Origin: an uncultured Actinomycetes bacterium
GTDB taxonomy: Bacteria > Actinomycetota > Acidimicrobiia > Acidimicrobiales > Ilumatobacteraceae
Assembly: GCA_903872155.1 (NCBI GenBank)
Contig: CAIQJP010000042.1
Location: 83,028 to 147,027, forward strand
Direction of reading: 5' to 3'
Length of the DNA: 64,000 bases
The notes beneath the pieces were generated by a model. It was given only the letters and a program-made list of their open reading frames with translations, was not told the origin of the DNA and did not search any database. Below, piece after piece: positions 3,852-55,614 of this stretch. A program made the position numbers and the translations under genes. How positions within the stretch are numbered: the stretch's first letter is position 1; each line of letters starts with the position of its first letter.

Positions 3852-4394
3852 ATGGATTTCTTCGCCGACTTTGATTTTGTTGACGTCATCACTTCAGGTG
3901 CCATTGGCGAACCTGGACGACGAACCTTTTATATTCAGGCTCGCGCCGGAGCTCGTACCGTGACAATCAGGTCCGAAAAGCAACAAGTTGCCGCAATCGG
4001 CAAATACCTTCGACGCGCTCTTGCTCATTTGCCAGTTCCAGAAGGTCAGCCTCCCCGCTCGGTCATGCAACTTGTCGAGCCAATTCAAGAAGCATTTGTT
4101 CTTGGTGCGATCGCACTTGAGTTCAACCGTGCCAACGACGAATTCGTTTTGCACCTCAAAGAATTTGCACCGCTCGCACAAAGCGACGACGAAGATGAAT
4201 TTGATGACGATGAAGACGATGAAGAATCCATCGAGGATGCCACCGGCGCACGTGCCCGCGTCAGCATGACCCGCGCTCAAGCAATGGCTTTTTGCGACAA
4301 TGCCGACCGAATTGTGTCGGCTGGTCGGCCCGACTGTGAACTTTGCGAACTCCCCATCAACCCTGATGGCCACTTCTGCCCACGCATGAACTGA
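3852..4394 (+). CDS. DUF3090 family protein
   Basis: 180 aa with an acidic insert (DDEDEFDDDEDDEE) and a C-terminal Cys cluster 'CELCELPINPDGHFCPR'. Position between the phosphatase and the SCO1664-like gene matches the known trio. Confidence 0.75.
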   Translation: MDFFADFDFVDVITSGAIGEPGRRTFYIQARAGARTVTIRSEKQQVAAIGKYLRRALAHLPVPEGQPPRSVMQLVEPIQEAFVLGAIALEFNRANDEFVLHLKEFAPLAQSDDEDEFDDDEDDEESIEDATGARARVSMTRAQAMAFCDNADRIVSAGRPDCELCELPINPDGHFCPRMN

Positions 4395-4412: not shown

Positions 4413-5105
4413 ATGAATATCCTGGAATTACTGCAACACGGTGAGATTGAAGTTGAAGGTCGGATGCCGTACAGCAGCAATGCAACTTTCCTCGTCAATC
4501 TCACTTTGGGCGACCAAGTAGGTAAAGCCATTTACAAACCGTTGCGCGGCGAACGACCTTTGTGGGATTTCCCAGCTGGGCTATATCAACGTGAAGTTGC
4601 TGCATACCTTCTGTCCGAGGCGATGGATGTGCATGTCATTCCACCCACTATCGAACGCGACGGTCCTTTCGGAATAGGTTCACTGCAATGGTTCATTGAT
4701 GCCCGTTTTGAAGAGCACTACTTCACTTTGTACGAGACCCGCGAAGACCTTCATGATCAGTTTCGCAATATGGCAGCTTTTGACATAGTTGCCAATAACA
4801 CCGATCGCAAAAGTGGTCATTGCCTCATTGATAACGATGATCGCATCTGGGGAATTGATCAAGGCTTGTGTTTTTCTGCTGAGTTCAAACTGCGCACAGT
4901 GATTTGGGAATTTGGTGGAGAGCCAATTGCACCTGATTTGATTGCCAAGATTCAACGAATTGTTGATCGTCCACCGCTTGAAGTTGCGGCGCTGCTAGAC
5001 GCCGACGAAATTGACGCAATGATCGAGCGTGCTTCGATGCTTGTGCAAGGTGCTATGTTCCCCATTGATGCATCTGGCCACCGCTACCCCTGGCCCATGG
5101 TCTAA
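4413..5105 (+). CDS. SCO1664 family protein (PI3/4-kinase-like fold)
   Basis: 230 aa. 'NNTDRKSGHCLI...IWGIDQGLCF' resembles a kinase catalytic loop plus DxG. Third gene of the trio. Confidence 0.7.
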   Translation: MNILELLQHGEIEVEGRMPYSSNATFLVNLTLGDQVGKAIYKPLRGERPLWDFPAGLYQREVAAYLLSEAMDVHVIPPTIERDGPFGIGSLQWFIDARFEEHYFTLYETREDLHDQFRNMAAFDIVANNTDRKSGHCLIDNDDRIWGIDQGLCFSAEFKLRTVIWEFGGEPIAPDLIAKIQRIVDRPPLEVAALLDADEIDAMIERASMLVQGAMFPIDASGHRYPWPMV

Positions 5106-10459: not shown

Positions 10460-11941
10460 CTAGCGCGGTAAGCGCAAGTCAACAACTGTTCCATCGCCTC
10501 GACGATGGGCTTCAATTCCGACTGCAATGAAATCTTCCGGAGCGCCGGCGCGAATTGAAATTGAACCGTTGAGTTCGGTCGTTACCAAAGTGCGCACGAT
10601 GGACAACCCGAGACCAGTTGCACCATTCAAATCAAAAGAAGGATCAAGTCCGCGACCATCGTTAATGACTTTGATCGCAATTTCATCATCGTCACCGCCC
10701 AGTTCAACTACGACTGTTCCGCCATCGCTTCCCTCGGGGAATCCGTGATCAACCGCGTTTTGCAAAAGTTCAGTGAGCACCACTGAAAGCGGCGTAGCGA
10801 TTGTTGCGGGCAAACGTCCACCATCACCTTGCACAATAAATCGCACCGGACGATCAGGTGATTGCAATCCTTCTTCGGCCAATCTCATGAGTGGTCGTAC
10901 GATTTCAATGAACGCCACATCTTCACCAGTTTCGCGTGACAAAGTTTCATGCACGAGAGCAATGGTTCGAATACGCCGCACGCTTTCTTGAACTGCTGCT
11001 TTTGCTTCAGGAGATTCAAGGCGTCGAGCCTGTAAACGCAACAATGAAGAAATTGTCTGCAAGTTGTTCTTTACTCGGTGGTGAATTTCGCGAATGGTTG
11101 CATCTTTAGACAACAGCATTCGGTCACGTCGACGCACTTCAGTGACATCACGAATGAGCAACATGCCACCCGTAATCACTTCTGTTGAAATGATCGGAAT
11201 ACAACGCACGAGCAAAGTCACATCAGCGGTTTGATCAAATTCTTCAATGACCGGCTCAAAACGTTCAAACGCTTGGCGCACCGGGCTGTCAGCAAATCCG
11301 AGTTCACTTAACGATTGACCGACAACATTCGCAGTGATTCCGACGCGGTGAAGAGCCGAAACTGCGTTTGGAGACGCGTAACGAATAATGGCGTTTTCGT
11401 CCAGTACTACAGCTCCGTCGCCAACACGCGGAGCAGCACTCAAGTCGGCAGCACGACCCGGGAACGGGAAAGCACCTTCGGTGATCATTTCGGCGATTCG
11501 CTGAAAGATCGACAGGTACGTTCTTTCAAGTTCGCCGGGTTGACGACTGGTCTTTGACGACCATTCACGAGTTAACACGGCAACTGGACCATCAGCACCC
11601 CGCACCGGAATCGCCAGTACGTGCACAGAATCAAACATTTCGTGCTTATGCAATTCGGCTTCACTAATCGAACCTGTTGACATTGCTCGATCCAGCAATT
11701 CTGATTCAGCCGGATTAGCCAATGATTCAACTAAGTCGGTGCGATAGATGGTTTGACCAGTAGCTGGCCGCACTTGGGCCCCCACGATCCATTCACCCTC
11801 GAGATTTCTCAAGTACAAAATCATGTCGGCGAAACACAAGTCGGCGAGCATGCCCCATTCGCCGATCAACTGCTGCAGATGAGCGCTGTCGTCTTTGGAA
11901 ATTTCAGTATGTTGGCGAAGAAGTTCGGCAAGTGTTGCCAT
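10460..11941 (-). CDS. pdtaS: PdtaS-type sensor histidine kinase (GAF/PAS-HisKA_2-HATPase)
   Basis: H-box 'EIHHRVKNNLQ'; ATPase boxes 'ELLQNAVDHG', 'NDGRG', 'GLGLSIV'. Adjacent to whiB1, as in mycobacteria. Confidence 0.85.
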   Translation of the reverse strand: MATLAELLRQHTEISKDDSAHLQQLIGEWGMLADLCFADMILYLRNLEGEWIVGAQVRPATGQTIYRTDLVESLANPAESELLDRAMSTGSISEAELHKHEMFDSVHVLAIPVRGADGPVAVLTREWSSKTSRQPGELERTYLSIFQRIAEMITEGAFPFPGRAADLSAAPRVGDGAVVLDENAIIRYASPNAVSALHRVGITANVVGQSLSELGFADSPVRQAFERFEPVIEEFDQTADVTLLVRCIPIISTEVITGGMLLIRDVTEVRRRDRMLLSKDATIREIHHRVKNNLQTISSLLRLQARRLESPEAKAAVQESVRRIRTIALVHETLSRETGEDVAFIEIVRPLMRLAEEGLQSPDRPVRFIVQGDGGRLPATIATPLSVVLTELLQNAVDHGFPEGSDGGTVVVELGGDDDEIAIKVINDGRGLDPSFDLNGATGLGLSIVRTLVTTELNGSISIRAGAPEDFIAVGIEAHRRGDGTVVDLRLPR

Positions 11942-42137: not shown

Positions 42138-43931
42138 TCAAACGTTCGGCGTAAGTACTAAGCCAGCAAGGTCGCCCTGCTGACGCCAATTTTCGACATA
42201 CTCAGCAAATCCCAAGACACTGGTCATCCAGGCAATGGCTCGAGCCGAGCGCATGTCTCCGCCACCTTCGCTATTGAGGTAACCGGGTGTGCAAGTCGCG
42301 TTGTAACGAGCGATTCCCCACAGTTGCGCAAACAAAGTTTCAAACCAATTCTCTTGTGCCGCAGTTTCGGGTTCGATCGTTGCGTAATTCCCCTTCACGC
42401 ATTGCTCAATCAAGAACGCGACATGTTGCGCTGCTTCGGTAATTGAGTGGACGAAGTTAGTCGCTTGTGCTCCCTGAACTGTTGAGATCATAAACATGTT
42501 CGGGAAACCGTTTGACAGCACACCATGCAAAGTGGCCGGGCCTTCTGCCCAAGCCTCACTTAACGAAATGCCGTCGCGCCCTTTTGGATCAAAACCCAAA
42601 CGATGTGTATAGCCCGTTGTCACTTCAAAACCTGAAGCAAAGATCAATAAGTCAACGGGATACTCAACTCCATTAACGATGACCCCGCGTTCATTGATTT
42701 CGTTGACACCCTTTCCATCAGTATCAACGAGATGAACATTCGGACGATTGAAGGCTGGCAAGTATTCATCGTGGAAACAGGGACGCTTGCAACTTTGCGA
42801 ATACCACGGCATCATCAGTTCGGCTGTTGCCGGATCTTCGATCACATCAGCGATTCGCTGACGAACGCGTTCCATGTTTTCGAAGTCAATTCGCTCTAAC
42901 TCAAGCGCCTCGTCATCATTCTCGGGCAACTTACGAGTATCAACCCAGTTCATCTTGGTCCACTCATCGTCAATCATGTCGACAGCAGGCTGTGCACCCG
43001 TCACTGCTTGAGTGAAGTTTCGAGTTCGTTCGGCCTGCCAACCTGGCTTCAGCGACTTGAACCATTCTGGATCGGTCGGTTTGTTGTTGCGAACACCCAC
43101 ACATGCAGCGGTGCGCTGGAAGACAAAAAGTTCTTTCGCAGCTTCAGCCAATTTGGGAACAACTTGAACAGCCGTGGCACCCGTCCCAATAATGCCGACG
43201 CGCTTGTCAGCAAGTTTTTCCATCAACGTCTGCGAACTTCCACCGGTGTAGCTGTAATCCCAGCGACTGGTGTGGAAGGCACGACCGGCATAGGTTTCAA
43301 TGCCGGGGATGCCAGGCAACTTCGCTTTATGAAGCACTCCACCGGCAATCACGATGAACTTCGCCGAGAGTACGTCGCTACGCGAGGTCATGACATTCCA
43401 ACGCTTCGTTGATTCATCCCAGCGCATGTCTTCAACTTCGGTCTGGAAGAGTGCGCCGCGATACAAGTCGAATGTACGACCAAGCAATTGACAGTAAGCA
43501 AAAATCTCAGGGGCTTTCGCATACTTTTCGGTGGGCATGTAACCCGTGTCTTCAAGTAGCGGCAGATACACATACGACTCAACGTCACAAGCGGCATTGG
43601 GATAACGATTCCAGTACCAGGTACCACCAAAGTCGCCAGCTTTTTCGATGATTCGGAAATTGGTAATTCCGGCCTTTGTCAAATTGGCTGCTTCAATCAT
43701 TCCACCGAAGCCACCACCAACAATGACGACATCAACTTCTTCGACAATGGCATCGCGTGTAAAGCCAGGCTCAACATACGGGTCACGGTCGAACTCTTCG
43801 TAGTCGCCTTTAAGTTCTTTGTACTGACGGATGCCGTCAGCGCGGAGACGCTTTTCGCGTTCAATGCGATATTTCTCGCGAGCTTCTTCCAACGAAAGTT
43901 TCTTGTCGTTGTTATTCCCCATAGCTGGCAT
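42138..43931 (-). CDS. Baeyer-Villiger flavin monooxygenase
   Basis: FAD motif 'GGGFGG', '[11 protein letters not shown]', BVMO fingerprint '[12 protein letters not shown]' and NADPH motif 'GTGATAVQ'. Confidence 0.88.
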
Positions 43932-49102: not shown

Positions 49103-50428
49103 ATGACCGATATCGCAATCATCAATGGGACCGTGCTGCCGATGGCCGGCCGGCCAGTCATCAATAATGGCGTCGTTACGATTACAGGCAATTCGATCAG
49201 CGCAGTCGGCACCGCGACTGACATCGACGTCTCTTCTGCCAAGAAAGTGATTGATGCCCGCAACTGCGCAGTCATGCCAGGGTTTTGCAACAGCCACACC
49301 CACATCGCCTCAAACTTGTTGCTCCGCGGGCTCCTTGAAGATGTGTTGCTCTTTGAGTGGTTACAAACCATGTGGAAGCTCAAGCAGAACTTTGACGAAG
49401 AAACGCTCTATTGGGCAAGTATGTGCGGTCTTGTTGAAATGGCTCGCTCAGGAATCACCTCGTTCAATGAACACTTTGACGCGTATGCAGTTGAACCACA
49501 AATTGAGGCGCTCAAAGAAATTCCTCTACGCGCAACCCTCGGATACGGTTTTGCTGATCGTGGTCTCTATGCATCAATCACCGACTACTCATGGAAGACG
49601 ATTAACAACTTCGGCAATCTTGCTGCGCAACATCACAAAACTCGCGATGACCTTTTGCGCATCGCGCTGTCACCGCACGCCGTTTATTCATGTGGTGAAG
49701 AAATGTGGCGACTCGTTCGTGAAGTAGCCGACGCTCAACAAGTCCCGATTCATACACACCTATCTGAAGGTATGCAAGAAGTTGAATACTGCCTTGAGAC
49801 CTACGGACTTCGTCCGGTGCAGTGGTTGCATTCACTTGGTTTCCTTGGACCAGATGTCACCGCAGGACATTGTTCGCAACTTGATGCAACCGACATCAAG
49901 TTATTGGCCGAAACCGGAACGAAGATTGGTCACTGCCCCGTTTGTAATGCCAAATTAGGTTCGGGAACTATGCCACTTCGGCAAGTACGCGAAGCGGGTA
50001 TCACTGTTGGTCTCGCAACCGACGGGCCAGCAAGTCACAACGCCAGCGACATGTTCCAAGAAATGAAATTCGCGGGGCTCATTCATAAGACCAACACTGG
50101 CGACGTCGAATTCTTAAAGATCAACGAACTCCTTGAAATGTCGACATATCAGGGCGCGCTCGCGATGAATCGTCCAGACACTGGTCGGCTTGAAGTTGGC
50201 GCCAAGGCCGACGTCATCGTGGTCAACCTAGATACCGCCCACGCCCAGCCGGTTTATGACCCCATGTCTGCCCTGGTGTACTCAACACGCGCTGACGATG
50301 TTCGCCACACCATCGTGAATGGTCAATTCATTATGGAGAATGGCCGAGTGCTCGGTGTCGATGAAGACCTGATCAGGGCCAAATTCCATGAAAAAGCCCA
50401 TGCCCTGAAAGTTCGAAGCCTCAGCTAG
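49103..50428 (+). CDS. Amidohydrolase (MTA/SAH deaminase MtaD / chlorohydrolase family)
   Basis: 'CNSHTH' HxH metal motif, 'HLSE' and 'ATDGPASHN'. Confidence 0.75.
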   Translation: MTDIAIINGTVLPMAGRPVINNGVVTITGNSISAVGTATDIDVSSAKKVIDARNCAVMPGFCNSHTHIASNLLLRGLLEDVLLFEWLQTMWKLKQNFDEETLYWASMCGLVEMARSGITSFNEHFDAYAVEPQIEALKEIPLRATLGYGFADRGLYASITDYSWKTINNFGNLAAQHHKTRDDLLRIALSPHAVYSCGEEMWRLVREVADAQQVPIHTHLSEGMQEVEYCLETYGLRPVQWLHSLGFLGPDVTAGHCSQLDATDIKLLAETGTKIGHCPVCNAKLGSGTMPLRQVREAGITVGLATDGPASHNASDMFQEMKFAGLIHKTNTGDVEFLKINELLEMSTYQGALAMNRPDTGRLEVGAKADVIVVNLDTAHAQPVYDPMSALVYSTRADDVRHTIVNGQFIMENGRVLGVDEDLIRAKFHEKAHALKVRSLS

Positions 50429-50480: not shown

Positions 50481-51563
50481 ATGATCTTGACCGAACTGCG
50501 CACTACTGCCGACGAGTTTGCACGTGCAACCGACTGGCAACCAAAACCCGAAGGGCTCTGCCGAGGCGAAGTCTGTGTCCCCGCCCCAGGTGCATTGTCA
50601 GCTGACGGAATGATCGACGTTGCAGTCGCTGCACAAAAGCTGGGTATGCCGCTTGTGCAAGATGCTGAGCATGGTGTGTGGGCACTTGGTTCAGCAACGT
50701 TGTCTGGCAAGTCACTGAGCACTGCAGTTGCCGCCGATCCCGAACTCAAAACCTTTGATGGAACTCCATTCAAACTCTCATCACTGCGCGGCAAGAAAGT
50801 AGTCCTTGTCGCGTGGTCTAGTTATTGAGGCTGTCGCTCAAGCTTGCCCGGGTGGCAAGCACTCAACAATGAAATCGCCAGCCTCGGCGCAACAGTTGTG
50901 ACGGTTGCACTCGATATTGATCCTGCGTTAGCAAAACCTTGGAATGATTTAGCAAACCCAAGTCATCCGAGTTTGGTTGACACTCTTCACATCACTAATT
51001 CGCTTTTCGGATTTACCAATATCCCTATGGCGGCTTGGATTGATGAAGAGGGCAACTTAGTGCGTCCAGCCGAAGGTGCATCGATTGAACGCAGTCCTTT
51101 ACGTGACATGGAAATCCCTGAAGGTCTTCCCGAACAACTCAGCAAGATGATGCACGCTGTGAAAGCCATCCCCGATGACGGCGAGGCCTACCGCGAAGCC
51201 ATTTTGGATTGGGTGCGCAAAGGATCAGATTCCGAATTTGCCCTCACCCCCGACGAGGTGATCGCTCGTAGCCAACCGCGTTCAGACAATGAAGCTCGGG
51301 CAACTGCGTGTTTCGAACTCGGCGAATATTTCCATCGCATTGGCGAAAATGACACTGCTGTGACTTGGTGGAAAGAAGCACATCGTCTGCACCCACAAAA
51401 CCTCACGTACAAACGCCAAGCCTGGACATTAGTAACAACACCTGCTGGCGCCACCGAGTACGACCTCATGCAAGGTCCGAACGATGTTTACGACAGCAAC
51501 TTGGTTGATGAAGTCACCGGTGAGGGCGGATTTGGGCAATTCATTATCCGTCCACGCTTGTAA
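50481..51563 (+). CDS. ResA/TlpA-like thioredoxin-fold protein with in-frame TGA (candidate selenocysteine) and a TPR-like C-terminus
   Basis: ORFs 50481..50828 and 50844..51563 share a frame and are separated only by the TGA at 50826-50828. Read-through gives 'KKVVLVAWSSY-U-GCRSSLPGWQALNNEIASLGATVVTVALD...FGFTNIPMAAWIDEEGNLVRP'. Confidence 0.6.
50842..50860 (+). promoter_or_regulatory. SECIS-like stem-loop 13 nt downstream of the in-frame TGA
   Basis: GCTTGCC-CGGGT-GGCAAGC: a 7-bp stem with a G-rich 5-nt apical loop. Confidence 0.45.
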
Positions 51564-51641: not shown

Positions 51642-52613
51642 ATGGCTGATCTTGAGCACGTCCGTTGGATCCGCCGACCTGAACTGCGTCGGCCCCATGT
51701 CATCGCCGCCTTCACCGGCTGGAACGATGCCGCCGATGCTGCCAGCACTGCTGTAAAACACCTTGTTGAAAATTTGGGTGCAGCACCGCTTGCTGAAATC
51801 ATCCCCGAAGAATTCACCGATTTCGCAACAATTCGTCCGCATGTTCGTTTGAACACCGACGCAACACGTCACATCGTGTGGCCCACAGTCAGCCTGTGGA
51901 GTGTGACGAGTGGCGACGTTGATCTGATTCTTGTTCTCGGACCCGAACCAGCCCTTCGTTGGAAACTTTTCAGTGACCAAATCATCGGTGTCGCTCGCGA
52001 ATACAACGCGACAACTTTTATCTCACTCGGTGCTCTTTTGGCCGATGTTCCTCATCGTCACGAAACACAAGTGCTCGGAACTGCCACCGATCAAGCAATG
52101 ATCGATGCTCACGATTTACAGCGCAGCCGATACGAAGGACCGACCGGAATTGTTGGTGTTTTGAACGATGCCGCACACACTGCCGGATTTTCTACCGCTT
52201 CATTGTGGGCAGCGGTGCCGGCCTATGCCGCTCAAATTCCATCACCCAAGGCCGCTTCAGCGCTCATTGAACGACTTGCTGAAATTGTTGGTTGCGATGC
52301 GCCAACCATGATGCTTGATGCACAAGCCGAACTGTACGAAGAACAAATTGACGAACTCATCAGTAGCGATCCTTCAATGGCGCGTTATCTCGATCGACTC
52401 GAAAATCGCAGTGACGATGATGACGATTACGACGACGATGATTACGACGAAGACGACGACATGCCTTCGTACGGTGTCTCGCCCGATCAATTACGATTCG
52501 AAGGAATGGACGATGCTCCCCCGTTGAGCGGACCACTTCCCGATGAACCAGTCGACAGCGATGCGCTGATGGAAGAAGTTGAGCAGTTCTTGCGTAGTCA
52601 ACACGACGACTGA
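51642..52613 (+). CDS. PAC2 (proteasome assembly chaperone-like) family protein with an acidic tail
   Basis: 'VIAAFTGWNDAADAAS' PAC2 N-terminal motif. The C-terminus contains 'SDDDDDYDDDDYDEDDD'. Confidence 0.8.
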   Translation: MADLEHVRWIRRPELRRPHVIAAFTGWNDAADAASTAVKHLVENLGAAPLAEIIPEEFTDFATIRPHVRLNTDATRHIVWPTVSLWSVTSGDVDLILVLGPEPALRWKLFSDQIIGVAREYNATTFISLGALLADVPHRHETQVLGTATDQAMIDAHDLQRSRYEGPTGIVGVLNDAAHTAGFSTASLWAAVPAYAAQIPSPKAASALIERLAEIVGCDAPTMMLDAQAELYEEQIDELISSDPSMARYLDRLENRSDDDDDYDDDDYDEDDDMPSYGVSPDQLRFEGMDDAPPLSGPLPDEPVDSDALMEEVEQFLRSQHDD

Positions 52614-53331: not shown

Positions 53332-55614
53332 CTACGCGACCAACGAGAAGAGAATGGCGCGCTCAACCTCTTGGCGATGAAATTTGTCCGTCAGTTTGCT
53401 ACCACCAGATGTACGAACATAAAAGGCGTCGACAACTTCATCGCCGATTGTCTGCACCGTTGCGTGTCGAATGTCTAAACCGACCTCAGCCATCGCTTTT
53501 GTCACTCGGTGAAGAATTCCGTGTTGATCAGGGGCACGAACTTCAATCACTGTCGCATTTGAAGACGCTTCGTCGAAGAATGTCACGCGTGGTGGTGCCA
53601 GTTCTCCAGCAGAACGACGCTTTCGTCGATATGTCTTGGCCCGTTCGGCCATGCGAGCTTCGATTGCAAGTTCACCATGCAGAGCACGAGTCAGATTTTG
53701 AATAATTGGGGCCCATTCAATTGGCCCATGGCTCGGCACAATCACCCTAAATTGCGATGCCGCCATACCTTGTTCATCAGAGTGAGCTTGTGCACCCAAC
53801 ACGCTCAGTCCATGCAGAGCAAGCACACCTGCAACGCGGCTAAATGTTCCTGGTCGGTCGGGGCTCACTACCGTCACCGAGTCATCGGCAACGCCAAAGG
53901 TCACTGCACCGCCCGCCATCATTTCAAGTACTTCTGCATCAGGGAACAATCGCCACTGCGCTTCTTCAACTCCGGCACCTCCGAGCACGAGGTGAACTCG
54001 ACGCACCAGGTCATTCACTAACTCGGCTTTCCACGTACCCCAAGCAGCAGTACCTGTTGCCAAACTGTCGGCTTCGGTTAAGCCATGCAAAAGATCTAAT
54101 ACCAAAGGCGTTTTGACCTCATCAGCGACCATCGTGATCGTTGCACTGTCAGCCAAATCTCGTCGAGTTGCGACATCGGGCAATAGCAAGTGGTTCTTCA
54201 CCATCGAACAAATCACTTGAGTATCTTCAGCATTCAGACCAAGACGTGGTCCAATGCGTTCGACCATCGCCACACCAACTTCAGTGTGATCACCGGGATA
54301 TCCCTTACCGATGTCATGGAATAGTGCGCCAAGTACAAGAAGATCTGGACGCGCTACACGGTCGGCCCATGTTGCGGCGTTGGCTGTCGCTTCCCATAAA
54401 TGACGGTCAACAGTGAAGCGGTGATACGCGTTGCGTTGGGGCTTGCTGCGATTCGGTGCCCATTCTGGCAACACTTTGACCCACAAACCTCGCTGATCAA
54501 GTGCTTCAAGTACTGGGATCGCATCATGGGCTGTGAGTAGCAAGCCAACGAAATCATCAATCGCCCCAACTGGCCACGGGCTTGGCATCGGAGGGCACGA
54601 CTGCGCCAAGCGATCAAGAGTTGGCCGATCAATGCGAACTTTATGTCGAGCCGCCGAAGCAGCGACGCGCAACAACAAGGTCGGATCAGTTGCTGGATCA
54701 ACTGTCTCATCAAGGTGTACCTCGCCTAGGTGCAAGATCACACCTGGAGCAAGGTGCTGATCAGCAACAGGTTTAGTTTTGGCCGCCGAAACGCGTGCCC
54801 AAACTTCATCACCAACCCACGCGACCGATCGCCCTGCATTTGAAAGCGCTGCCACAAGTGCATCCGCATTTCGATATCCACATAGATCGGCTACGACATC
54901 TTGATCTTCGAGATGCATCACTTCAACAGCCCGACCGACATGACGATGCAAGGCAACTCGAACTGCCATCAACACGTCACGACCTGCATCGAGGGCATCA
55001 CGATCAGAACGAGTGATTTCAACGCCAGCAGCTTCGGCCCAAATCAGAGCATGAATATCGCGCAGACCTCCGTACCCCTCTTTCAGATTCGGCTCAAGCA
55101 AGAATGCGACTTCACCATTTTCTTGTTGTCTTTCACGGACTCGTTGCATCAATTGAGGGAGACGATTAGCGGCGCTCGCCTTCCATGCTTTGATACCGTC
55201 AACACTGAGTTCGTTCGCCAAAGATTCATCACCGGCTAACAGGCGCACACTTAACAATGCAGTCGCTGCATCGAGTTCGGACTTGGCTAGTTCAACGGCT
55301 TGTTTGACTGTGCACACCGAATGACCAAGTTTGGTACCCGAATCCCAAATTGGGTACCAAATCTTTGACGCAAGATCATCAATGTTCTTCACACCATCGT
55401 GCACCAACATGATGTCTAAGTCGCTAAATGGCGCCAATTCGCCCCGCCCGTAACCCCCTACAGCAACAAGTGCGACCCGCTTTGAAACTTTCACCGATTC
55501 ACAAGCAGTTGCCCAAATTTCACGTATCCACTGATCTGTTGCCTCGCATAAGGCGTGGGTCAAACGCACCCCGCGCAATTTGGTGTCAGCGAGAACTTGC
55601 TGGCGGCGTTCCAT
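53332..55614 (-). CDS. glnD: [Protein-PII] uridylyl/adenylyltransferase GlnD
   Basis: NTase motif 'GGYGRGELAPFSDLDI', an HD domain ('LFHDIGKG') and two C-terminal ACT-like domains. Confidence 0.88.
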   Translation of the reverse strand: MERRQQVLADTKLRGVRLTHALCEATDQWIREIWATACESVKVSKRVALVAVGGYGRGELAPFSDLDIMLVHDGVKNIDDLASKIWYPIWDSGTKLGHSVCTVKQAVELAKSELDAATALLSVRLLAGDESLANELSVDGIKAWKASAANRLPQLMQRVRERQQENGEVAFLLEPNLKEGYGGLRDIHALIWAEAAGVEITRSDRDALDAGRDVLMAVRVALHRHVGRAVEVMHLEDQDVVADLCGYRNADALVAALSNAGRSVAWVGDEVWARVSAAKTKPVADQHLAPGVILHLGEVHLDETVDPATDPTLLLRVAASAARHKVRIDRPTLDRLAQSCPPMPSPWPVGAIDDFVGLLLTAHDAIPVLEALDQRGLWVKVLPEWAPNRSKPQRNAYHRFTVDRHLWEATANAATWADRVARPDLLVLGALFHDIGKGYPGDHTEVGVAMVERIGPRLGLNAEDTQVICSMVKNHLLLPDVATRRDLADSATITMVADEVKTPLVLDLLHGLTEADSLATGTAAWGTWKAELVNDLVRRVHLVLGGAGVEEAQWRLFPDAEVLEMMAGGAVTFGVADDSVTVVSPDRPGTFSRVAGVLALHGLSVLGAQAHSDEQGMAASQFRVIVPSHGPIEWAPIIQNLTRALHGELAIEARMAERAKTYRRKRRSAGELAPPRVTFFDEASSNATVIEVRAPDQHGILHRVTKAMAEVGLDIRHATVQTIGDEVVDAFYVRTSGGSKLTDKFHRQEVERAILFSLVA

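Follow-up and report, generated by a model that had tools for sequence, protein, structure and literature searches.

Positions 50481-51563 on the plus strand of the window (the whole stretch of DNA that was analysed, 64,000 nucleotides) hold, in all likelihood, one gene for a 360-residue ResA-like WAxxUGC selenoprotein of a freshwater Ilumatobacteraceae-type actinobacterium. The TGA that interrupts the frame at 50826-50828 very probably encodes selenocysteine in this thioredoxin-fold redox protein. The candidate selenoprotein proposed in the initial annotation is supported by the conservation of the TGA, by purifying selection on both of its flanks, by Cys homologues and by a hairpin of the SECIS type. 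The selenoprotein family is already curated and published; the find is genuine, not new.

Layout of the gene

One frame runs from the ATG at 50481 to the TAA at 51561-51563, and its only interruption is the TGA at 50826-50828, codon 116. ORF finders assign the start of a second ORF to the TTG at 50844, and five sense codons (GGC TGT CGC TCA AGC) lie between the two. The distance between the starts (50844-50481 = 363 = 121 x 3) places the ORFs 50481..50828 and 50844..51563 in the same frame, and re-reading of the layout confirmed the initial description of a same-frame pair split by the TGA and five sense codons. The read-through peptide given there, ...KKVVLVAWSSY-U-GCRSSLPGWQALNNE..., was reproduced as written. 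The features of the gene are as follows.

50481-51563, plus strand: complete selenoprotein coding sequence, 360 codons including the UGA-Sec at codon 116; stop TAA at 51561-51563
50826-50828, plus strand: UGA very probably read as selenocysteine (U116), the predicted attacking, N-terminal residue of the U-G-C redox motif
50832-50834, plus strand: Cys118 (TGT), putative resolving partner of U116 in U-G-C; invariant and followed by the invariant Arg119
50842-50860, plus strand: bacterial SECIS-type hairpin, stem GCUUGCC/GGCAAGC of 7 bp, loop CGGGU at 50849-50853
50481-50705, plus strand: N-terminal domain of unrecognised fold, about residues 1-75, with Cys27 (50559-50561) and Cys32 (50574-50576), both invariant
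50718-51095, plus strand: ResA/TlpA-like thioredoxin-fold domain, about residues 80-205, with the cis-Pro motif N-I-P (P182 at 51024-51026)
51123-51560, plus strand: all-helical C-terminal domain, about residues 215-360, with one TPR-like repeat (residues 274-307, 51300-51401)
51399-51425, plus strand: motif N-x-T-Y-K-R-Q-A-W, in which all residues except x are invariant

Conservation of the UGA and its Cys homologues

The TGA is present at the selenocysteine codon in 80 of the 80 related loci that were fetched, each from a different GTDB species; these loci belong to freshwater Acidimicrobiia/Ilumatobacteraceae and reach down to 60% protein identity. The identical gene, with both TGA and hairpin, occurs in three independent assemblies. 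Presence in 80 related loci and in three independent assemblies puts the combination of TGA and hairpin far beyond chance. Both halves of the frame are open in every related locus that is not cut by a contig end, and dN/dS values of about 0.04-0.13 on either side of the TGA indicate purifying selection on both flanks. One relative (L001) stands at 92.6% nucleotide identity.

Alignment of the fused protein to its homologues, a check that the initial annotation had called for, gave the pattern expected of a Sec-decoded UGA: 27 full-length relatives have Cys in the corresponding column (TGC or TGT in the three whose DNA was read), and the orthologues keep the UGA (80/80). Across 27 sequences the residue at the selenocysteine position (C116) and the following G117, C118 and R119 are invariant. 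In a rough neighbor-joining tree all Sec forms group together, and P0005 is the one Cys form that falls within their clade or at its base; since this tree carries no bootstrap support, we conclude no direction of Sec/Cys change from it.

A SECIS-type hairpin constrained at synonymous sites

The hairpin downstream of the TGA consists of GCTTGCC (50842-50848), the loop CGGGT (50849-50853) and GGCAAGC (50854-50860), as had been read from the sequence at the outset. It lies 13 nt past the TGA, its loop starts 20 nt after the UGA, and its RNA codes for S-L-P-G-W-Q-A. The hairpin folds alone at -10.3 kcal/mol and is conserved in 80/80 loci; the 60-nt stretch from the TGA, whose folding was another of the suggested checks, gives z = -2.48 relative to shuffles. 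The published bSECIS model specifies a loop of 3-9 nt, a stem of 4-16 bp, a UGA spacing of 16-37 nt, and a G within the first two loop nucleotides with G or U directly after it, at an MFE <= -7.5 (PMC13188914). The hairpin at 50842-50860 falls within all four published bacterial SECIS constraints, and with its conservation across relatives the original claim of a SECIS-like element at canonical distance stands.

The nucleotides of the hairpin are more constrained than the encoded protein requires. Its Gly codon is GGG in 81/81 sequences (10.7% elsewhere) and its Pro codon CCC in 79/79 (38% elsewhere), while in the related sequences its Leu codon is only YTG and its Ser codon only AGY. In the alignment consensus 98.2% of hairpin cells are paired. 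One pair, 34-48, covaries (C-G 59, U-A 14, U-G 4, C-A 1); the remaining pairs are invariant or altered on one side only. Distant Sec forms retain the hairpin at the same distance (CCUGCC/CGUGU/GGCAGG), and the Cys homologues are without it. The family neatly illustrates how a SECIS element can impose a conserved peptide, S-L-P-G-W-Q-A, which is missing in the Cys forms.

Like the E. coli fdhF-type SECIS (the Zhang & Gladyshev bSECIS consensus), the element is an in-CDS stem-loop immediately 3' of the UGA, with a 7-bp stem, a 5-nt loop carrying G at position 2 and then G (U in distant relatives), a UGA-to-loop distance of 20 nt and a folding energy of -10.3 kcal/mol. In sequence it resembles neither fdhF nor any other SECIS element, which is usual for such elements, and the SelB site is a predicted one. 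A competing 41-nt alternative fold is predicted in the window sequence at -16.7 kcal/mol. A long-range lower stem (GAGGCUG/CAGCCUC) appeared in the single-sequence prediction; it has no support in the alignment consensus, so it was rejected and is not counted as part of the element. Rfam gave no match at the hairpin, either over the whole window at the gathering threshold or over 50750-50950 at E up to 10, a null that carries no weight since bacterial SECIS elements are not modelled there.

Membership in the WAxxUGC family

With U written as C, the protein matches NCBIfam NF041054, 'ResA-like WAxxUGC motif-containing protein' (WAxxUGC_long), at 463.9 bits (E 3.9e-139, cut-off 300), residues 1-350 covering profile positions 1-345 of 354. 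The ResA-like 'WAxxUGC' family name mentioned in the initial annotation is therefore a real one. In the window the motif reads W-S-S-Y-U-G-C, so that the protein shares U-G-C and the full-length match with the family and its clade differs from the family name by Ser for Ala, the motif agreeing otherwise. The related loci read W-A-S-Y/W-U-G-C, with W, U/C, G, C and R invariant. The three-domain architecture is common to the window protein and NCBI-named Cys homologues (P0067 = HEV7526365.1).

A 'UGC-containing' Prx-like/TlpA-like selenoprotein was listed in 2008 and again in a 2026 review, and 'Prx-like (UGC-containing)' selenoproteins were found to be commoner in non-marine samples (PMC2398784). 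The related MAGs are apparently of freshwater origin, judging by lake, river and pond isolate names, which fits that distribution. NF041054 and the published 'UGC-containing' families are linked by description; the review cites cd02966, not NF041054. A full-text literature search found no paper that uses 'WAxxUGC' as a term.

The U-G-C motif in a thioredoxin fold

Pfam Redoxin (41.2 bits) and AhpC-TSA (34.3 bits, gathering threshold 26) both match the window protein above gathering. In phmmer searches against the PDB, W-S-S-Y-[U]-G-.-C-R aligns with W-A-S-W-C-S-i-C-L (4evm), W-A-T-W-C-p-P-C-R (3kcm) and W-A-S-W-C-G-p-C-K (2yp6). In these alignments U takes the column of the first CxxC cysteine, and C118 that of the second after a one-residue deletion. 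The TGA thus sits at the N-terminal catalytic Cys of ResA/TlpA-type proteins, and the redox pair is U-G-C rather than U-x-x-C, as first described. The U/C-G-C spacing is invariant in the family. The cis-Pro is conserved, N-I-P aligning with Y-P, V-P and I-P of the PDB relatives. The structure model is that of the Cys homologue P0005 (55% identical to the window protein), for which Foldseek returned ResA 1st9_A at E 9.8e-10 and a target TM of 0.76.

Comparison with ResA/TlpA/CcmG(DsbE) (cd02966, Pfam Redoxin/AhpC-TSA) brings out a shared thioredoxin fold with a cis-Pro loop (the fold being taken from the P0005 model), W-x-x-W/Y before the attacking residue and Arg/Lys after the second Cys. Unlike these proteins, the window protein has an active site of the CxC type, one residue short of CxxC, carries neither signal peptide nor membrane anchor that would mark an extracytoplasmic protein, and has additional domains at both ends, a Cx4C domain at the N-terminus and a helical one at the C-terminus. 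The NCBIfam ResA and TlpA models score about 31 bits on it, against cut-offs of 170-230. Assignment to the peroxiredoxins (AhpC/TSA) was rejected: although Pfam AhpC-TSA is above gathering, the motif P-x-x-x-T/S-x-x-C is absent. The residues before U are V-L-V-A-W-S-S-Y (family consensus V-L-V-x-W-A-S-W), with no Pro at -7 and a consensus Ala at -3.

The bacilliredoxins BrxA/BrxB (UPF0403) likewise combine a thioredoxin fold with an unusual C-G-C spacing and are cytoplasmic, as the window protein probably is. In Brx enzymes the first Cys acts by a monothiol mechanism and strips bacillithiol from proteins (PMC6591457). They may serve as a working analogy for the actinobacterial U-G-C enzyme, for the motif only. 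Membership in the Brx family was rejected, as none of the Pfam/NCBIfam hits at E up to 1 belongs to it and the C-G-C spacing is all that is common to both; in contrast to the window protein, Brx has no N- and C-terminal domains and no Sec forms are cited.

Flanking domains and location

The initial annotation had pointed out an N-terminal module with CRGEVC and a TPR-like C-terminal module, and their invariant residues and models indicate that both are real, conserved and uncharacterised. The N-terminal domain carries the motif K-P-E-G-x-C-x-x-x-x-C, and all 27 aligned sequences share T17, W19, K22, G25, C27 and C32. It is modelled confidently as an alpha/beta domain (pLDDT about 90, for P0005 and for window residues 1-115); the fold search gave no significant PDB match to it (best E 1.2), and no Pfam family matched. 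In the C-terminal domain TPR_2 and TPR_11 reach an E of about 0.01, short of the threshold, consensus TPR proteins align with profile positions 278-313, and the helices are modelled with pLDDT above 80 in P0005. N307, T309, Y310, K311, R312, Q313, A314 and W315 are invariant in the 27 sequences, and the x of N-x-T-Y-K-R-Q-A-W is Leu in the window protein and Trp in the Cys homologues.

The N-terminus of the window protein, MILTELRTTADEF, is polar. Kyte-Doolittle means over 19 residues peak at 1.53, in a beta strand of the thioredoxin domain, and there is no hydrophobic segment. Since signal peptide and membrane segment are absent, the protein is probably soluble and cytoplasmic. Signal-like N-termini occur in some distant family members.

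Selenocysteine machinery and alternative readings of the UGA

ARAGORN found no tRNA-Sec in the 64-kb window or in the related loci L001-L060, and among 30 window ORFs compared with NCBIfam or Pfam, all those of SelA, SelB or SelD size included, there was no selA, selB or selD. The initial annotation was correct in reporting this set of genes as missing from the window. Complete Sec machinery is universal in Actinomarinales, another order of Acidimicrobiia (bioRxiv 10.64898/2026.04.03.716425). That preprint, on Actinomarina, was the only item on Ilumatobacter or Acidimicrobiia and selenocysteine in the literature searched. We infer a Sec-decoding capacity for this organism.

The alternative that survives best, and which we still consider quite unlikely, is a UGA that functions without selenocysteine. 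It would be read through by a near-cognate tRNA (as Trp, Cys or Arg), or would mainly terminate to give a regulatory truncated N-terminal product; the hairpin would then be a pause or read-through stimulator, not a SelB site. The lack of Sec machinery in the window and in the scanned locus flanks is in its favour, as is the fact that termination always competes at Sec codons. Against it, the codon occupies the position of the redox-active Cys of homologues, the hairpin agrees with the SelB-type bSECIS model down to its G-G or G-U loop dinucleotide, curators class the family among the selenoproteins, and a sister order of the class has the complete machinery.

A pseudogene or a sequencing or assembly error, by which a Cys codon TGC or TGT was mutated or misread to TGA, is most improbable. 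The Cys codons of the homologues are indeed one base away from TGA, and one related contig (L084) has TCA at the Sec site and broken neighbouring genes, so poor assemblies do get this codon wrong at times. This reading is nonetheless refuted in practice by a TGA kept in 80/80 species-level genomes, by its recurrence wherever the identical gene was assembled independently (three assemblies), by two intact halves with dN/dS of 0.04-0.13, and by a dedicated hairpin conserved at synonymous sites in the TGA forms only.

Just as improbable is a pair of genes, for a 115-residue protein ending at the TGA (50828) and a 239-residue TPR-like protein starting from the TTG at 50844. Most public annotations split the locus in this way (115 aa and 239 aa, 'hypothetical protein' or 'TPR repeat protein'), and protein libraries hold many fragments of 114-117 aa and of about 230 aa. 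Such a split would cut the thioredoxin fold exactly at its active site, while single-chain Cys homologues span both halves and the two halves share a frame in every locus. The supposed TTG start encodes the Leu within the hairpin stem, and 61/81 sequences have CTG instead.

That TGA has become a sense codon throughout the genome, as it has in code 4 or 25, is a reading with nothing in its favour beyond the in-frame TGA itself and merits virtually no credence, since TGA is the commonest ordinary stop in the window (25 of the 51 long ORFs examined end in it) and no other convincing TGA-interrupted gene was found in the 64 kb. A second TGA-interrupted frame (3852..4394 and 4413..5105) was considered and rejected, being two complete unrelated genes.

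Selenocysteine at codon 116 is thus the reading that we retain. The neighbourhood of the related loci gave no functional lead. A PAC2-family gene lies immediately downstream in 77/80 loci, and the lineage shares its synteny with PAC2, Nudix and GlnD, which is absent around distant Cys forms. The upstream amidohydrolase was rejected as a selenium-linked partner: it matches SsnA weakly (185 bits, cut-off 455) and is present in 15/80 loci.

Proposed mechanism

By the standard bacterial mechanism, the hairpin at 50842-50860 would position SelB as the ribosome reaches the UGA at 50826-50828, and SelB carrying Sec-tRNA(Sec) and bound to the hairpin would bring about insertion of selenocysteine instead of termination. 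By analogy with thioredoxin-fold enzymes, U116, which takes the place of their attacking Cys, would most likely attack disulfides, mixed disulfides or peroxides. The resulting intermediate would be resolved by C118, with formation of a strained selenenylsulfide, and recycling of the U-G-C site may fall to the N-terminal Cx4C pair or to a low-molecular-weight thiol.

The function of this experimentally uncharacterised family could be new. One speculative and rather unlikely possibility is a cytoplasmic three-domain enzyme in which the Cx4C domain relays electrons to the strained U-G-C selenenylsulfide for a specific client in the abundant freshwater Acidimicrobiia, which, if true, would be a chemistry distinct from that of CxxC thioredoxins. 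The PAC2-family protein encoded immediately downstream would be a candidate client, and mycothiol-type de-thiolation, by analogy with the C-G-C bacilliredoxins, a candidate role.

Significance

The value of the gene is mainly practical, as it shows that selenoprotein genes are still mis-called in public data. At least 21 deposited contigs carry its exact C-terminal half, annotated as a 'hypothetical' or 'TPR repeat' protein of 239 residues, and its N-terminal half has been deposited as a separate 115-residue ORF, with dozens of such half-proteins in protein libraries. Current understanding of Sec decoding is left unchanged by this UGC selenoprotein gene. We found no report of Sec decoding in Ilumatobacteraceae in the literature searched, and the gene implies selenocysteine decoding in freshwater Ilumatobacteraceae-type Acidimicrobiia. 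The U-G-C in a thioredoxin fold beside a Cx4C domain of unrecognised fold is a putative redox design that may merit characterisation.

The TGA at codon 116 is very probably a sense codon in a conserved gene

The gene runs in a single frame from the ATG at 50481 to the TAA at 51561-51563, with the TGA at 50826-50828 (codon 116) as its sole interruption. The initial annotation had described two in-frame ORFs (50481..50828 and 50844..51563) separated by this TGA and five sense codons, a layout that the sequence confirms; the TTG at 50844 is where an ORF finder starts the second ORF, of 239 residues. Of 51 long window ORFs that were examined, 25 stop at TGA, and the genetic code is therefore standard.

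Scanning a single genome for each GTDB species gave 103 relatives, and the best 80, all of them metagenome-assembled genomes, were kept. These are mostly titled Actinomycetota, Acidimicrobiia or Ilumatobacteraceae, and many of their isolate names indicate a lake, river, pond or groundwater source. The nearest has 92.6% DNA identity to the window. Alignment of the homologues at the TGA column places TGA in 80/80 of these loci, over protein identities to the window that fall from 97% to 60%, and an identical gene with the same TGA and hairpin is present in three further independent metagenome assemblies. Wherever a contig end does not truncate the locus, both halves are intact, and dN/dS values of 0.04-0.13 for both halves indicate strong purifying selection. 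Of the best 120 protein clusters, 27 span the full length and have Cys in the selenocysteine (Sec) column (W-A-S-W/Y-C-G-C-R), encoded by TGC, TGC and TGT in the three Cys forms whose DNA was examined. Another 92 are C-terminal fragments starting just past this column, which is the expected look of a Sec gene truncated by a gene caller. A 50%-identity representative library held 264 family members at E up to 1e-30, including many N-terminal fragments of 114-117 residues that stop just before U and C-terminal fragments that begin past it.

One locus (L084 2001-2987, protein P0021) has TCA (Ser) at the Sec codon with the SECIS hairpin intact. Its neighbouring PAC2 and Nudix genes are fragmented, so the TCA is probably an assembly error, though it may be a recent Sec-to-Ser change. 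Elsewhere in the window, ORFs 3852..4394 and 4413..5105 (+) share a frame, with a TGA and a few codons between them, much like the arrangement of the selenoprotein gene, but are two complete, distinct genes: TIGR03847 covers positions 4-177 of 177 in its profile and TIGR03843 (SCO1664 family) 1-253 of 253.

A bSECIS-type hairpin constrains the codons after the TGA

The 7-bp stem with a CGGGT loop noted 3' of the TGA in the initial annotation is present as described:

50842-50848 and 50854-50860, + strand: hairpin stem GCTTGCC/GGCAAGC, enclosing loop CGGGT

Folding of the region gave -10.3 kcal/mol for the hairpin alone, and the 60-nt stretch that starts at the TGA folds more stably than its shuffled versions (z = -2.48). 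The bacterial SECIS (bSECIS) model (PMC13188914) calls for a loop of 3-9 nt, a stem of 4-16 bp, a UGA-to-loop distance of 16-37 nt and a minimum free energy <= -7.5 kcal/mol, with a G among the first two nucleotides of the loop and, as a rule, G or U after it. With a 5-nt loop CGGGU, a stem of 7 bp, a UGA-to-loop distance of 20 nt and -10.3 kcal/mol, the window element lies within all four constraints.

The hairpin region of the 81 Sec-form sequences is AGC YTG CCC GGG TGG CAR GCN (S-L-P-G-W-Q-A), and its synonymous sites are frozen beyond the need of protein coding.

Codon choice in the hairpin and elsewhere in the same genes
Gly: GGG in 81/81; elsewhere 10.7%, the least used Gly codon
Pro: CCC in 79/79; elsewhere 38%
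Leu: CTG or TTG only; elsewhere CTC 42%
Ser: AGC or AGT only; elsewhere TCN 64%

In the 7-bp helix 98.2% of cells are paired; shifting the 3' partner by 1-3 columns lowers this to 31-71%. One pair covaries, that of Leu codon base 1 with Gln codon base 3 (C-G 59, U-A 14, U-G 4, C-A 1). The other pairs are invariant or change on one side only, so covariation by itself gives modest evidence, and the skewed codon usage argues more strongly for the hairpin. Cys homologues lack such a hairpin, and their peptide differs there (e.g., D-G-I-A-S-W-Q or F-D-L-P-L-W-Q). Three more distant Sec forms (L088 257-316, L089 347-406 and L090 335-394), reading W-A-S-W-U-G-C-R-S-D-L-P-V-W-Q-E-L-R, carry CCUGCC/CGUGU/GGCAGG as their hairpin, spaced from the UGA as in the window; their loop dinucleotide is G-U versus G-G in the window clade, the alternative that the bSECIS model allows.

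Two other structures were predicted in the single window sequence. One is a competing 41-nt fold at 50826-50866 (+) of -16.7 kcal/mol, in which the UGA region pairs with the 3' arm of the hairpin. The other, a long-range stem GAGGCUG/CAGCCUC (50827-50833 with 50879-50885), finds no support in the alignment consensus and was set aside.

Domain architecture and active site

In phmmer alignments to solved thioredoxin-family structures, U116 falls on the first Cys of CxxC, C118 on the second once a deletion of one residue is allowed for, and the cis-Pro loop is matched by N-I-P(182); the TGA thus stands at the N-terminal catalytic Cys of the ResA/TlpA type, where it had been placed at the outset. 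The AlphaFold model of P0005, a Cys homologue 55% identical to the window protein, is confident (pLDDT 91) and has three parts. The first is a predicted small N-terminal domain of alpha/beta type; the second, a thioredoxin fold, matches ResA (1st9, E 1e-9, target TM 0.76) and TlpA; the third, at the C-terminus, is helical and includes one TPR-like repeat. The two flanking parts correspond to the additional modules already suspected from the sequence. The N-terminal domain has an invariant Cys pair, C27/C32, in K-P-E-G-x-C-x-x-x-x-C; Pfam gave no family for it, and the PDB fold search no significant match. The C-terminal motif N-x-T-Y-K-R-Q-A-W is invariant except at x, where the window has Leu and the Cys homologues have Trp.

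The window protein has neither a signal peptide nor a transmembrane segment and is probably cytoplasmic, in which it differs from ResA, TlpA and CcmG. The peroxiredoxin motif P-x-x-x-T/S-x-x-C is absent from it. The bacilliredoxins, which use a monothiol mechanism to take bacillithiol off proteins (PMC6591457), are the closest precedent in function for a cytoplasmic thioredoxin fold with C-G-C spacing; we found no sequence relationship of the window protein to them, and the likeness is therefore an analogy only. Some distant members in the representative library (P0172 and P0180) begin with a hydrophobic stretch resembling a signal peptide, so a subset of the family may be exported. What is said here of selenium incorporation, SelB binding, location, substrate and mechanism of the U-G-C protein is what we infer.

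Gene neighbourhood and Sec machinery

Genes of the window considered with the selenoprotein gene
140-1507, -: N6/N4 DNA methylase, seen while scanning for sel genes
10460-11941, -: PdtaS-type histidine kinase, likewise seen in that scan
42138-43931, -: neopentalenolactone/pentalenolactone D synthase PtlE-like (668 bits; cut-off 1100)
49103-50428, +: TRZ/ATZ-type amidohydrolase, below every NCBIfam cut-off
51642-52613, +: PAC2 (proteasome assembly chaperone-like) gene with an acidic D/E-rich tail, on the same strand as the selenoprotein gene
53332-55614, -: GlnD (784 bits, above cut-off)

A PAC2-family gene lies directly downstream, on the same strand, in 77 of the 80 Sec-form loci and in the nearest Cys form (L082), and an SCO6745-family gene lies upstream in 60 of those 80. 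The amidohydrolase stands between the latter and the selenoprotein gene in only 15 of the 80 and therefore looks like a lineage-specific insertion; as a selenium-linked SsnA it was rejected, the resemblance being weak (185 bits versus 455). More distant Cys forms sit in unrelated neighbourhoods, one amid GSHPx, OsmC, MarR and Usp genes. This synteny is within one lineage and is given no functional weight, and the methylase, PdtaS-type, PtlE-like and GlnD genes are unrelated to selenium.

Scanning of the 64-kb window and of the related-locus flanks examined found no selA, selB, selD or tRNA-Sec, as the initial annotation had noted for the window. Sec machinery is universal in Actinomarinales, another order of Acidimicrobiia, according to a preprint (bioRxiv 10.64898/2026.04.03.716425); our literature search returned no report of it for Ilumatobacteraceae.

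A known family, split in public records

The fused 360-residue protein, with U written as C, matches NCBIfam NF041054, 'ResA-like WAxxUGC motif-containing protein' (model WAxxUGC_long, equivalog), nearly end to end and with a score of 463.9 bits (curated cut-off 300), so the half-remembered family name WAxxUGC is real. Pfam recognizes only Redoxin and AhpC-TSA in the middle of the protein, with TPR repeats near residue 280 below threshold. A 2026 review traces the UGC-containing family to the 2008 GOS study and to Peng et al. 2016, and the GOS paper (PMC2398784) describes 'Prx-like (UGC-containing)' with 46 Sec sequences, commoner in non-marine samples. By their description these published families probably correspond to NF041054; a full-text search of the literature collection found 'WAxxUGC' in no paper.

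Exact copies of the 239-residue product of the second ORF (50844-51563, +) occur in NCBI, ENA and Logan, spread over at least 21 contigs (the longest 332,511 bp), the product's cluster mates are labelled 'hypothetical protein' or 'TPR repeat protein', and the 115-residue first half is annotated as its own gene. This splitting is a systematic mis-annotation. Since the family is curated by NCBI and present in the selenoproteome literature, and near-identical copies, usually mis-annotated as two ORFs, are in public assemblies, the gene is already known.

With the TGA conserved, Cys in homologues and a bSECIS-type hairpin, the selenoprotein reading proposed at the outset is supported, and this is very probably a genuine selenocysteine-encoding gene. 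It is a clear case of a SECIS element fixing peptide sequence. Its remaining value lies in the implied use of Sec in an abundant freshwater actinobacterial lineage and in a U-G-C enzyme, yet to be characterised, whose N-terminal domain is without a recognised fold.
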